A stretch of DNA of 64,000 nt from a virus (Duplodnaviria; Caudoviricetes), in the IMG/VR virus record IMGVR_UViG_2910903598_000004, positions 32,001-96,000 of that record. One strand, given 5' to 3'. Of this stretch, positions 1,441 through 48,471 are shown piece by piece. The first letter of the stretch is position 1, and the number at the start of each line of letters is the position of its first letter. The notes beneath the pieces were generated by a model. It did not search any database, was not told the DNA's origin, and saw nothing but the letters and a program-made list of their open reading frames with translations. Position numbers and translations under genes: made by a program.

Positions 1441-1487
1441 ATAAAATGCACAAAAGACAGACGTATTTATGTCTGCCCTTTGTTTTT
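1441..1487 (-). terminator. CAGAC..GTCTG-core terminator-like hairpin abutting the radC RBS
   Basis: Minus strand ACAAAGGGCAGACATAAATACGTCTGTCTTTTGTGCATTTTAT immediately followed by AAGGAGG. Confidence 0.55.
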
Positions 1488-1521
1488 AATAATCTTTCAT
1501 TCAATAATTTCTCTTGAGTTT

Positions 1522-1785
1522 CTATTTTTTAGATGCGAATCTAGGAATAAATCCTTCAAAATTCGTTGCTGGAAACTGATCTCGTGCAATATGATCGATA
1601 ATTCCATAAAAATCATGTGTAAAATTAAATAAATCTGCTTGAAGCCATTCATCTAATCTGATGTTAAATTTGCGATCTGCACTTTCAATATCCATTAATA
1701 CTGAAAGTTTATCGTTAACATGAAGGCCCTCTTCTTTTGCACGCTGAATAATAGCTGCATATTTTTTATATCTTTCTTTTATCAT
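1522..1785 (-). CDS. Hypothetical protein (DUF6874-like)
   Basis: MDI...L...L.AD.FNF.HD..GI..HI.R...F.PRF pattern. Confidence 0.65.
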   Translation of the reverse strand: MIKERYKKYAAIIQRAKEEGLHVNDKLSVLMDIESADRKFNIRLDEWLQADLFNFTHDFYGIIDHIARDQFPATNFEGFIPRFASKK

Positions 1786-2714
1786 TATCTATTCTCCTTT
1801 TCTACAATTTTGATATTTCCTGTTTTTCGCTCATAATGATAAATGTTATAGCTTAGTTGATTGTCTTCTGAAACTATAATATCATTAGCTGCACCTAACA
1901 TTTCTTTTACATCATGAATGGAACAATCGTCGGGTAACACGATGCATTTATGTATAGATGACGGAATAATATAAAGATCTGAATGGAGTTTATTTGAAAG
2001 TTTCCATAGATTTTCCGTATAGAGAATTTCATTTGCTCCAAACAGCATATTTTCATTCGTAAGCATATACACCAGACGAGACTCTGCCTCTGGTGGATAC
2101 ATAATATCTACAAACGCTCTTGGTGCTCCCGCCATGAAGAGATACTCACGAGCAACATCATCAAGTAACGCAATTTTTGTCTTCATAATATGTTGACTCA
2201 TTGCCTTTAGATACAAATCCTTTTCACTCCAATCAAGGGCTTCCATAAGTTCGTTATTAACAATCCCTGTTTCAAATCCCTGATCTGTTTCTTCGCATAC
2301 TATACGATATATTATTGCAAGATCAAGAAATTGCCGATGTGGAACATGTTGAAGCATTTCTTTTGACTCTTCCATATTTACTAATTGAATAAATACTTTA
2401 GCTGTTTCTTTTGAGAGTTTTTCTTCTTTTTCTCTTCGATCTTCATGAAGAAAATACGCTTTTACCTGCTTAATAATTGTATCCAATGTATATGGAAAAT
2501 CATAATATGGAAGATAAATCTCATACAATTGCTGTATATTAATCACAATTCCTTTATCTTCTCCTTTTCTGGAGATTTTGATCCCATCCATCATTCTGTT
2601 TGTACATACTAGCTTAGAAAAACTTATCTCTAGTCCTGCTAACTCATTTTTTGATGCTTTTGGCAATTCTTTTTCTAATTCCAATTTGAATTCTTCATAG
2701 TTCATTATTTTCAT
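1785..2714 (-). CDS. DUF5688-family protein
   Basis: LVN.E...E.L..VPH..FLDLAIIY, MLTN....FGA, DLYIIPSSIH, LS..IYHY motifs. Confidence 0.8.
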   Translation of the reverse strand: MKIMNYEEFKLELEKELPKASKNELAGLEISFSKLVCTNRMMDGIKISRKGEDKGIVINIQQLYEIYLPYYDFPYTLDTIIKQVKAYFLHEDRREKEEKLSKETAKVFIQLVNMEESKEMLQHVPHRQFLDLAIIYRIVCEETDQGFETGIVNNELMEALDWSEKDLYLKAMSQHIMKTKIALLDDVAREYLFMAGAPRAFVDIMYPPEAESRLVYMLTNENMLFGANEILYTENLWKLSNKLHSDLYIIPSSIHKCIVLPDDCSIHDVKEMLGAANDIIVSEDNQLSYNIYHYERKTGNIKIVEKENR

Positions 2715-2727
2715 TATTTTCCCTCCT

Positions 2728-45526: not shown

Positions 45527-45633
45527 TTTCTTTCCCCTTTCTAACAAAACATCATCTTGGTATTGATGATGCTTTGTTATCTTTTTTCTTTTCGTGTAAA
45601 TTGCATATTTAACACATTCTATGCAATTTACAC

Positions 45634-46314
45634 TTATTTTTTATTTTTTTCAATTTGTACATCACTGTCATTACTCGTCACATTTTCTTCAAATCCATCT
45701 GATGATGTGATTGTAAATTCTCTATTCGGTACAAAAGGAATATCATACGTTGTATAATTATCATCCACTACACCATTACTCTTCTCTATGTAATCACTTG
45801 TAACTTCGATTCCATTAATGTACGTCGTAAGACTTTTTTCTGCTTTATACTTATAATTTGATACATAGATATCTGGCATATAGATTTTCCAATCATTATT
45901 CCTATCCTGAACAAGTATAATTTCATAATCCTCGGAATCTTCTGTTGTATACGTTAGTTTTCTTGTAGTTGCATTATTATTATCTGAATCATCAATTACC
46001 GTATTGTCTTTTTCCATATTGGTTAACACAATCTGCTTCTTTGACATTCCTACGATATCCTCAAGATTACTTCTTTCAATATACCAAGATACATCATCAT
46101 CTTTAATAAATGTGCTGTCTGGAATATAAATATATGACTTAATATCTTTGTAGTCCTCTTTTTGGACCTTTTTCACAAATTTATCAGACACTTTTTTTGC
46201 TTTCTTTTCCTGTATATTTTGAGGTGTATAAATTTCTTTACTTCCACTAGAACACCCTGTTAAAACTGTCATAATACCCATAACACATAAAAATAATACA
46301 ATTTTTTTCTTCAT
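45634..46314 (-). CDS. Lipoprotein
   Basis: Lipobox LTGC. Confidence 0.8.
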   Translation of the reverse strand: MKKKIVLFLCVMGIMTVLTGCSSGSKEIYTPQNIQEKKAKKVSDKFVKKVQKEDYKDIKSYIYIPDSTFIKDDDVSWYIERSNLEDIVGMSKKQIVLTNMEKDNTVIDDSDNNNATTRKLTYTTEDSEDYEIILVQDRNNDWKIYMPDIYVSNYKYKAEKSLTTYINGIEVTSDYIEKSNGVVDDNYTTYDIPFVPNREFTITSSDGFEENVTSNDSDVQIEKNKK

Positions 46315-48410
46315 CGAATAATACCTTCCTTTAAAAATTCTGTTGTGATTCTTACATAACCATGATTAGTTACAATACTTCCATCCTCTGCTTCTTCCAA
46401 CATGACTTTCACATTGAAGCTTTTACCTTTTTTGGATTTACAATTTAACAAATCCACACTTCCCTGCGTGAAAAGTTCTGCTACCATATTTCGATCAACT
46501 TTTTTCTTGACAGCTGCAAAATATGGATGATCTTTCAGCATGATCAAATCATTATTCTCACACTGAAACCCTGATACAGATTCCAAAACTCTTCCTCTGC
46601 AAATCGGACATCTACAAATGACAGGTAAGAAATTCTGATCTCGTTTTTCAAACATATGATTTACATCTTCATAAATAAGCTGTAATGCCTTCTTAATTGA
46701 AATCTGGCCTGTCCCAACTTCTCTTTGTAATACGCCCATTTTAACAGTGCTTTCCTTACTCAAATCAATTCCTAGTTTAAATAGAGAATTAATATAGAAG
46801 ATTCCTTTTTGTTCAATCCGATAAATATCTTTCTTTAATGAGATATATCCTGATTTTTGAGCTTTATTAATAATTTCTGCTCGCGTTGATGTTTTTCCGA
46901 TTGTTGCACCCTTTCGTATATTTGCATACATTGTATCTTCATCTTCGATCTCTTCATCTTTCGCAAATGGATTATCCATAAATTTTACCAATGTATCTGT
47001 TGTATAATGTTTTGGTGGTGTTGTCATCTTCTTCTCCGGCTGAAAGTTTATCGGAATATTATCACCTTTTTGAAAATCAGGTATCTCACGATCATTTGTT
47101 CTAAGATTTTTTACCTGTTTCCATCCTTTACTGATATAAATATCTCCTTGTATTCTGAATTTTTCATTCAAACATTGGATATCGAGTGTTGTACGATGCA
47201 CCATACATTCTTCCGAGAAAAACACTTCGTGGAAACGATCTACGATTTCTTTATAGACAATCTGTTCTTTTTGATTTAGCTTATTCATATCTGGAATCTT
47301 ACCTGTTGGCACCAATGCACTATGAGCAATGACCTTTTTATCATTAAAGATCTTATTACTATCTTTAAATGCAAGATCTACACCACTGCCTTGAAGTGAC
47401 TGTATGATTTTTTTTATTTTATTTTTTTCTTCACTTTTCAGATATTCCGACTCTGTTCTTGGATAACTGGCATATCCATTTTCATACAATGATTGTACTG
47501 TTTTTAACGTATCAGACGGTGACATCTTATAATACTTTCCCATCCATCCCTGTAATGTATTCTGGCTGAATAATTTAGGTGCCTGGATTACTGTTTTTCT
47601 TCGATTCATAGCTATTACTTTAGCTCCTGCCCGATTATATTGATCCGCAACTTTTGATGCTTCTTCTTCTGTTTTAAATGTTGTCTTAGATGTTAATGTA
47701 AGTCCTTCCTTACTCACATTTTGGAAATATGGCTGCGGAACAAAATTTTGTATCTCATAATCTCTTTTAAATATCTCAAATACAATAGCTGTGATTACTC
47801 GTCCTACATGAAAACAATCTTTTCCAGTTGTTCCGAATTTCAATGATGCATATCTGGAAGCGTTGATCCCGTAGAGCCAGTCATAAAAAGCACGGAACCT
47901 TCCCTCCAATGCCATTGCTTTATATTCCGGAGAATTATTTGGTTTCATTTTCTGCAATGCTTCTTTAAACTCGTCAACAGTATTGGAATCTTGGATTAAA
48001 CGATATACTGGCTTAGTACATTTAGCATAATGCAGCACGTTATCTACCAGTACCTGTCCTTCATCATCACTATCTCCTACATGGATCACGGCATCTGCCC
48101 ATTCAATTCCTTTTACGATATCATCAAATATTTTTTTCGCACTCGTCCCTCCGGTAGTTTTTTGCATCAATTTGTATCGAAAAGTCTTTGGAAAAAATGG
48201 TAATGCATCAAGATCCCATCCTTTTTTCTTTGATGGATACTCTGGATAATCTTCCATATTAAATAATTCAAAAATGTGTCCACTTAGAGCATGAATCTGA
48301 TAGTGTTCGCCGTAATAATTACGCCCTCTTTTTACGAGCTTTTCTGGTAATGCTTCTGCAAGATTTTCCATAATACTACTTTTCTCGCATATTGCAATGT
48401 ATTTCTTCAT
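46311..48410 (-). CDS. topB: Type IA DNA topoisomerase (Topo III-like)
   Basis: Toprim ICEK.S, GH, D.D.EG; GINASR; GRV.T; LYE.G..SYPRTES; C-terminal Zn ribbon. Confidence 0.9.
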   Translation of the reverse strand: MKKYIAICEKSSIMENLAEALPEKLVKRGRNYYGEHYQIHALSGHIFELFNMEDYPEYPSKKKGWDLDALPFFPKTFRYKLMQKTTGGTSAKKIFDDIVKGIEWADAVIHVGDSDDEGQVLVDNVLHYAKCTKPVYRLIQDSNTVDEFKEALQKMKPNNSPEYKAMALEGRFRAFYDWLYGINASRYASLKFGTTGKDCFHVGRVITAIVFEIFKRDYEIQNFVPQPYFQNVSKEGLTLTSKTTFKTEEEASKVADQYNRAGAKVIAMNRRKTVIQAPKLFSQNTLQGWMGKYYKMSPSDTLKTVQSLYENGYASYPRTESEYLKSEEKNKIKKIIQSLQGSGVDLAFKDSNKIFNDKKVIAHSALVPTGKIPDMNKLNQKEQIVYKEIVDRFHEVFFSEECMVHRTTLDIQCLNEKFRIQGDIYISKGWKQVKNLRTNDREIPDFQKGDNIPINFQPEKKMTTPPKHYTTDTLVKFMDNPFAKDEEIEDEDTMYANIRKGATIGKTSTRAEIINKAQKSGYISLKKDIYRIEQKGIFYINSLFKLGIDLSKESTVKMGVLQREVGTGQISIKKALQLIYEDVNHMFEKRDQNFLPVICRCPICRGRVLESVSGFQCENNDLIMLKDHPYFAAVKKKVDRNMVAELFTQGSVDLLNCKSKKGKSFNVKVMLEEAEDGSIVTNHGYVRITTEFLKEGIIR

Positions 48411-48435
48411 GACCTTCCTCCTTCTATTTTGACAT

Positions 48436-48471
48436 AAAAAAAGACCCAGGACCCGAAGGTTTCCTGAGTTC
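48436..48471 (-). terminator. Intrinsic terminator (TTCG loop) shortly before the topB RBS
   Basis: ACTCAGGAAACC-TTCG-GGTCCTGGGTCTTTTTTT then ATGTCAAAATAGAAGGAGG. Confidence 0.7.

Follow-up and report, generated by a model that had tools for sequence, protein, structure and literature searches.

The 64-kb stretch of DNA analyzed here (hereafter the window; bases 32001–96000 of a 119,963-bp record, G000, filed as a virus) is part of a conjugative, one-directional element of Anaerostipes hadrus of at least 200 kb, in which hairpins followed by T-runs end directly against the Shine-Dalgarno (SD) sequence of the next gene. This arrangement is real and goes far beyond chance. Judged from their sequence, the hairpin-plus-U elements are genuine factor-independent (intrinsic) terminators between cistrons. 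Our leading model, held tentatively and with less than even confidence, is that antitermination across several of these terminators is conditional and is set up at repeated leader modules.

All nine sites named in the original prediction (S1–S9, Table 1), every one on the minus strand, consist of a hairpin and then a T-run, and the claim that these adjoin the next SD was borne out at 9/9: the T-run ends 0–13 nt before the SD and 15–27 nt before the start codon. The stems measure 9–20 bp, with folding energies (ΔG) of −9.3 to −30.0 kcal/mol and 4–7 U in the first 8 nt past the stem. Six sites (S2, S4, S5, S6, S7, and S9) are canonical by their GC-rich stem base and U6–U8. The others are imperfect, with interrupted U-runs at S1 and S8 and a stem mismatch at S3. 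The interrupted U-run of S1 (GCAUUUUAU) touches the SD AAGGAGG, and its stem core, CAGAC/GUCUG, is the same as in the leader hairpin described below. Our own scan added unlisted sites of the same kind at 25502–25557, 27361–27405, 31952–31997, and 3942–3969, and the window holds about 29 terminators in total, including six just upstream of leader promoters (T0) and eight within the leaders (T2).

The chance expectation was estimated from 72 intergenic segments (22.3 kb) of the 120-kb record, in which hairpin-plus-T elements with a ΔG ≤ −12 were counted and compared with 12 dinucleotide shuffles. There were 43 such elements on the sense strand versus 13 on the antisense strand and 2.2 ± 1.8 in the shuffles, and a separate scan for consensus terminators gave 2–5 times the shuffle mean. 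Over the whole of the 221,898-bp sister contig G002, we found 22 intergenic TGnTATAAT promoters versus about 100 terminators. The idea that terminators at unit ends have longer stems than internal ones was dropped, the values (medians of 14.5 versus 12–13 bp) being too few and too overlapping.

Long stems of 14–20 bp, which are frequent here and flanked by an A-tract and a U-tract, would also suit a role mainly after or outside transcription, in which the hairpins serve as 3′-end or intercistronic stabilizers of processed mRNA, as binding sites of a ProQ-C-like protein, or as single-strand DNA structures in transfer. The element does encode a protein of the Phage_ProQ_C_like type. We nevertheless consider such a role very improbable: the U-run on the sense strand, the strand bias, and the placement past stop codons are traits peculiar to terminators, a single-strand promoter would need longer stems, and no sequence is conserved across the sites. 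The protein itself (145 aa, 23291–23728, minus strand) was recognized from a precomputed match to PF24203 in sister contigs. ProQ/FinO proteins bind terminator hairpins, and this one is a candidate partner of the terminator hairpins and of the short leader RNAs.

The slack between the upstream stop codon and the hairpin is −6 to 38 nt at S1–S5, S8, and 25502–25557. Sigma-A-type promoters whose start would fall past the 5′ arm but no closer than 12 nt to the ATG were sought at ten sites and compared with shuffles; the best candidates inside or after the hairpins matched 5–8 of 12 positions, no better than shuffles. Starts inside the hairpins, the outcome that the original prediction had named as contrary to it, thus find no support from the computed promoters. 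A promoter overlapping the hairpins, of the kind seen in the PeSL cassettes discussed below, was rejected on the same result. With no promoter better than chance after the hairpin, the downstream cistrons therefore depend on read-through, and with the slack so tight, transcripts encoding the genes downstream of S1–S5, S8, and 25502–25557 must have passed the terminator.

The earlier statement that no room is left for a promoter stood for the DNA downstream of every hairpin, but it was too broad for the DNA upstream. The stretches upstream of S6 and S7 (104 and 86 nt, the latter counted from the upstream stop codon) hold mediocre promoter-like matches only, no better than 9/12 at S7. S9 lies in a gap of 267 nt together with the uvrD terminator (48636–48670), an 11/12 promoter (48581–48608), and perfect TGnTATAAT motifs at 48615–48623 and 48531–48539; from this layout, it is read as a 5′-untranslated-region (UTR) attenuator of topB and not as an intra-operon terminator. 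An intra-operon position, proposed for all nine sites, was accordingly retained for six tight junctions (S1–S5 and S8) and abandoned for S6, S7, and S9, which stand in longer gaps.

The leader modules were counted with an nhmmer profile: eight full copies lie in the window, 16 in the record, and 17–18 in G002, all of the latter between 76 and 178 kb. The module usually runs in the order T0, extended −10 promoter, 5′ domain, A-rich linker, T2, U-run, and SD. From the predicted +1, the 5′ domain forms a long irregular stem with an apical hairpin, H1, followed by U7; H1 varies from copy to copy yet stays foldable, as judged by eye and from single-sequence folds, the consensus fold not having recovered it. 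Conserved boxes, AAUAGAA and AACCA, mark the linker. T2 is a nested 9 + 9-bp hairpin of 19–23 bp in all, with covarying pairs, and has the longest stems (median 20 bp, and 14.5 bp for T0). Of the ten perfect sense-strand TGnTATAAT motifs in the window, six belong to leader promoters and two to the topB gap.

When the leader was folded without the 3′ arm of T2, no competing partner was found for the 5′ arm, and T2 should therefore form by default. An alternative antiterminator fold was sought in the leader and rejected, nothing beyond a 3–4-bp CCA/UGG mini-helix being found. Two terminator-like signals thus stand between the promoter and the first SD with no alternative pairing, and passage would therefore need more than RNA refolding, or leak. 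The leader matched no Rfam family; its pattern was found in IMG/VR only in this element family, and among GTDB representatives only as single chance matches in unrelated AT-rich genomes.

In the leading model, transcription units would start at sigma-A-type (extended −10) promoters. By default, polymerase from a leader promoter would stop at H1-U7 and at the 19–23-bp T2, and polymerase leaking past the leader terminators would stop at the internal ones, so that about 100 kb of establishment, anti-restriction, and replication genes would stay silent in the integrated element despite read-in and spurious starts. Under a permissive condition, some activity would let the elongation complex pass T2 and the next one to three internal terminators. 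A possible source is the leader RNA, working in the manner of put, EAR, or canT, or else a new protein recognizing the conserved single-stranded boxes UUAUUAGA, AAUAGAA, and AACCA; the many leader copies would be reloading points, the range being limited. In the unit starting at 21808, five genes lie behind T2 and three successive terminators. We infer that read-through which is active, processive, and loaded at the leader is plausible. The narrower proposal of an undescribed system, in which the ~150-nt leader makes the host RNA polymerase resist its own T2 and the internal terminators, either by RNA only or with a protein unrelated to NusG, ConAn1, N, and Q, seems to us rather unlikely; if true, about 100 kb of establishment and anti-defense genes would be switched as one regulon.

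Internal terminators had been presented as typical of antiterminated elements, in agreement with the published hallmark of conAn and canT (PMC8191782, PMC11658703). Part of the original interpretation of the terminators as a signature of processive antitermination is upheld, as they are canonical, stand in co-directional arrays, and require read-through, but it is weakened in that the type IV secretion system (T4SS) part of G002, with none of these leaders inside it, is laid out alike. In the same way, the eight promoter-leader-terminator modules said to load an antitermination activity are present, but nothing ties the leader to processivity.

The arrangement can also be explained with an unmodified polymerase, and we consider this nearly as likely as the leading model. 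Each leader would then be a self-contained attenuator, and the unit would be turned on by control confined to T2, through a protein or an RNA, or by simple leak; the internal terminators would act as partial stops, lowering expression stepwise along the unit and keeping out antisense or spurious transcripts, and T0 would end the units. Several observations weigh against leader-loaded antitermination, and part of them favor such passive punctuation. The 16–18 leader promoters, one per ~6–8 kb and most with an upstream T0 insulator, are at least as compatible with units gated one by one as with a single processive complex, which could do without them. Each unit has only 0–3 internal terminators, and cumulative leak could therefore suffice. 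The terminator-SD layout recurs in the T4SS zone, which has no leaders inside. No alternative fold and no Rfam family link the leader to processivity. Three of the nine sites (S6, S7, and S9) are a 5′-UTR attenuator or lie in long gaps, and S1, S3, and S8 have imperfect U-runs or stems. The T2 and T0 stems fall within the range that resists conAn in pLS20 (PMC10325885), and the mechanism would therefore have to differ from conAn2. Passive punctuation has difficulties of its own: S2, S4, S5, S6, S7, and S9 look efficient, the five genes of the 21808 unit would be nearly untranscribed if leak alone carried polymerase through T2 and three terminators, and no structure on which a local switch could act competes for the 5′ arm of T2.

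The search for an antitermination factor likewise went against leader-loaded antitermination and is in line with passive punctuation. The protein searches used six-frame translations of G000 and of sister records of 144–222 kb. The absence of a NusG paralog, reported earlier for the window, was confirmed and extended to the whole ~220-kb element, where NGN (PF02357) had no match; the only match to KOW was below threshold and inside RecD2. ConAn1 (Pfam pXO2-34, PF17362) had no match at E ≤ 1 in G000–G004, and the rest of the replicon, where the original prediction had proposed to look for NusG, LoaP, or ConAn1 homologs, yielded none over threshold. For Q, PF06530 had no match at E ≤ 0.1 and PF03589 had one sub-threshold match, inside a 1208-aa surface protein. 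No sigma factor was found by r2 and r4_2 searches in G000, G001, or G002. PHROGs searches with ten unannotated proteins, among them those encoded first in the most upstream leader unit, gave no regulator. On the RNA side, Rfam 15 gave no relevant match in the window at gathering score or at E ≤ 5, and in the rest of the element its only matches were RAGATH-30, a group II intron, a T-box, and DUF3800-I, with no antiterminator RNA. A large structured RNA in the non-coding stretch upstream of the leader zone was also considered and set aside, the stretch being not unusually structured (z −0.8).

Sister contigs indicate that the hairpins are maintained. The comparison was limited to G000 versus G002, and the relatives are too close for statistics; no distant relatives suitable for covariation were found, the protein relatives being at least 80% identical with near-identical intergenic DNA. 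S2 is identical in G002, and S5 is identical in L019–L022 and G002. The S3 mismatch is repaired in G002 and L021 (ΔG −16.5); S4 differs from its G002 counterpart at three positions, with U-A changed to U-G, and still folds (ΔG −21.1). The T0 ending at 9695 shows in G002 a compensatory change from G-C to A-U and a repaired mismatch, and the G002 ortholog of 25502–25557 is 78% identical including its flanks, folds at −28.3 kcal/mol (−25.6 in G000), and keeps the U-run. Hairpins kept through substitutions argue for selection rather than neutrality.

This bears on the possibility that the terminators are scars of acquired or shuffled "SD-ORF-terminator" cassettes (ORF, open reading frame), simply tolerated, some of them solo leader remnants, with weak unrecognized promoters serving the genes. 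Traces of shuffling are evident. The leader copies at 27909–28145 and 34675–34911 are 94% identical over 237 nt, and in L019 (1–2300) the 6.8-kb unit between these two leaders is absent, the DarB-like gene being directly followed by the unit at 27.9 kb. Leader modules thus appear to be recombination points for whole gene units. In L019, S6 also comes directly after the leader, the 80-aa gene between them being absent. S8 is a half copy with T2 only, T0 and the inner T2 hairpin share a CAGAY/RUCUG core, and several junctions have slack upstream and none downstream of the hairpin, as expected from head-to-tail joining. The PeSL cassettes of T4-type phages, with a promoter that overlaps the stem-loop, offer a precedent (PMC2839356). 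We still regard cassette scars as improbable: no promoter overlaps any of the 10 hairpins above shuffles, the hairpins are maintained through substitutions, and the CAGAY/RUCUG core occurs in only 4/41 (~10%) of the non-leader terminators of the leader zone. Nor are the internal terminators mostly half copies of the leader, as S8 alone matches the leader profile (nhmmer, model positions 102–153 only, E 4.8e-4).

The 76-kb T4SS part of G002 has the same layout of terminators against the SD with other promoters, and its sole leader copy stands at the zone head. In this zone (G002 58066–58223, 46430–46494, and 36979), other extended −10 promoters are followed by terminators 2–90 nt later, and two of these promoters have a CAGTGAG box in common past the −10; they look like members of a second leader family of promoter-then-terminator design within the element. 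The Rfam RNA RAGATH-30 has many intergenic copies where the leader family is absent (L011 and L012 of G000 outside the window; L103 and L112 of G002). The repeated intergenic RNA modules of the element therefore belong to at least two families, which occupy separate zones.

Comparison with known systems gives leader-loaded antitermination several partial precedents. In pLS20, 23 predicted terminators in a 32-kb operon are read through by conAn (PMC8191782); these terminators suppress spurious transcription (PMC8191782, PMC8955417, PMC10325885), and stems of at least 14 bp resist antitermination (PMC10325885). The present element resembles it as a Gram-positive conjugative element with long co-directional arrays and many internal terminators (~29 in the 64-kb window). 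It differs in that no ConAn1 is present in ~220 kb and no 260–600-nt conAn2-like RNA follows the first gene, with no conAn1 to serve as an anchor; in having 16–18 short (~150 nt) promoter-leader modules versus one operon head; and in its many stems of at least 14 bp, a length that is resistant in pLS20. Tn916 uses the RNA antiterminator canT, and terminators insulate the element genes while it is integrated (PMC11658703). A protein-free cis-acting RNA in a Firmicutes integrative and conjugative element would fit the absence of a recognizable factor here, but canT is single and ~340–450 nt long, whereas the leader is ~150 nt, repeated, and ends in its own strong terminator, and neither sequence nor Rfam links the two.

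The lambda PR′-qut-tR′ region has a constitutive-looking promoter with a strong terminator within ~150–200 nt, so that only a short RNA is made unless polymerase is modified near the promoter, and Q-modified polymerase ignores later terminators. The leader modules and the topB gap similarly pair a strong promoter with a terminator within ~200 nt, but without a Q homolog or an evident sigma-dependent pause element, and in many copies versus one. HK022 put and Bacillus EAR are small structured cis RNAs near the transcript start that need no dedicated protein (summarized in PMC8191782). The leader would likewise be a small cis-acting RNA near the transcript start; unlike the two-hairpin fold of put, it conserves single-stranded boxes and one variable hairpin and has no Rfam match. 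PeSL elements are compact repeated promoter-stem-loop cassettes between small accessory genes; their stem-loops work as terminators, and recombination shuffles the modules (PMC2839356). Recombination between leader copies appears to shuffle gene units in the same manner, which concerns the leader modules and not the internal terminators; in PeSL the promoter overlaps or follows the stem-loop so that transcription restarts, whereas at the internal sites here a promoter of that kind could not be detected.

Table 1. Terminators and leader modules of the window, with positions counted from its first base; all features are on the minus strand.
Feature	Position	Context	Properties
S1 terminator	1441–1483	Between DUF6874 gene (stop 1522) and radC (ATG 1425); Pfam: DUF6874, RadC	13-bp stem, ΔG −17.8
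S2 terminator	5991–6020	4 nt past stop 6025, before 70-aa ORF (ATG 5971; confirmed by translation)	10-bp stem, tetraloop, U7
S3 weak terminator	7697–7731	Overlaps stop of YpsA-like gene, precedes 225-aa gene (ATG 7676)	11 bp, one mismatch, ΔG −9.3
S4 terminator	17272–17306	LPD16 gene / 272-aa gene (ATG 17253)	12-bp GC-rich stem, ΔG −18.5, U6, A-tract upstream
S5 terminator	18203–18249	ssb / LPD16 gene (ATG 18185)	18-bp stem, ΔG −21.1, U8, 4 nt to SD
S6 terminator	21366–21396	Before YhaM-like HD gene (ATG 21349); 104 nt slack upstream	9-bp stem ACAGAC/GUCUGU, U8
S7 very strong terminator	39782–39836	Before DarB-like methylase-helicase gene (ATG 39759)	20 bp, ΔG −30.0, U7
S8 terminator	41829–41880	Before 89-aa gene (ATG 41808)	Half copy of leader T2; inner stem 13 bp, outer GGCAA/UUGCC
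S9	48436–48469	Upstream of topB (ATG 48410)	10-bp stem, UUCG loop, U7
Extra internal terminator	25502–25557	60-aa gene / 100-aa gene; 7 nt past stop, 20 nt before ATG	18 bp, ΔG −20.7
Extra internal terminator	27361–27405	After 79-aa gene	17-bp A/U-rich stem, ΔG −17.0
Hairpin with U-rich tail	31952–31997	Between an SD and its ATG (31948); part of repeat D10	16 bp, ΔG −18.8
uvrD-unit end terminator	48636–48670	7 nt past stop	10 bp, ΔG −15.5, U7
Leader module	2728–2936	Then DUF5688 gene	T0 2892–2936, TGnTATAAT 2871–2879, 5′ domain, T2 2728–2788
Leader module	9485–9695		T0 9653–9695, promoter 9633–9641, T2 9485–9543
Leader module	12729–12948		T0 12907–12948, promoter 12882–12890, T2 12729–12781
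Leader module without T0	21757–21921		11/12 promoter 21893–21921, T2 21757–21808
Leader module	27927–28162		T0 28123–28162, promoter 28083–28091, T2 27927–27986
Leader module	34693–34923	94% identical to copy at 27.9 kb	T0 34889–34923, promoter 34849–34857, T2 34693–34752
Leader module without T0	42581–42739	Then decayed PDDEXK_2-type gene	
Leader module	56221–56441	Heads replication-gene unit	T0 56405–56441, promoter ~56365–56376, T2 56221–56272

Two further repeats were noted. A 42-nt repeat (81% identity) at 9420–9461 and 21463–21504, just past the first small ORF of two leader units, forms a hairpin, CCACAGAC...GUCUGUGG, without a U-run, and in one copy a GTGACA −35-like box follows the hairpin; an operator and a leftover of a paralogous gene end are two possible readings. 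Repeat D10 (19371–19423 and 31988–32040) has a perfect SD, AGGAGG, then a small GC hairpin, a second hairpin, and the ATG, so that its SD lies ~60 nt from its start codon. After the leader at 42.6 kb, the first gene (41904–42581, minus strand) is decayed, leaving 264 nt without an ORF and a remnant of 137 aa that weakly matches a transposase-type PHROG; sister contigs carry an intact 271-aa PDDEXK_2 protein at this locus.

Nearly all ORFs of the window lie on the minus strand, at a GC content of ~32%. Its genes include RadC, SSB, LPD1/LPD16, a YpsA-SLOG protein, a DarB-like methylase-helicase, a clamp and clamp loader, UvrD, and TopB. On this basis, we take the window to be the portion of a very large conjugative element, and not of a phage, that serves establishment, anti-restriction, and replication. 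Compared with the record, G002 is collinear at 96–99% identity, and it is one-directional from end to end. Downstream, it encodes a VirB4/TraG-type ATPase, a Gram-positive pilin, adhesins, and a penicillin-binding protein (PBP), and at its upstream end a threonyl-tRNA synthetase behind a T-box, which looks like the host flank. The phage identity under which the record was filed was rejected: no HK97 capsid was found in the record, and the VirB4/TraG-type ATPase, pilin, and PBP are present instead. A 99%-identical protein is assigned by NCBI to Anaerostipes hadrus. The T4SS part of G002 also contains a group II intron (D1–D4 and domain V/VI models) at L103:13711–14407 (G002 ~33.7–34.4 kb). A sub-threshold match (38.5 bits, E 0.011) to Rfam n00280, a Clostridioides difficile small RNA annotated inside a helicase gene, falls at 48882–48980 (minus strand) inside the UvrD-like gene and probably reflects coding similarity.

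Anaerostipes hadrus, a butyrate producer, is common in the human gut, and the element is very widespread in public assemblies, its proteins being indexed in hundreds to thousands of assembly blocks. If its ~100 terminators are read through on command, as in the leading model, the element would represent a third, unrelated Gram-positive solution for very long conjugative operons, after conAn and canT, with a control that is modular and has many reloading sites. If they are only leaky punctuation, it would be a clear natural example of terminator-insulated gene cassettes, which bears on how anti-defense and establishment genes are silenced in an integrated element.

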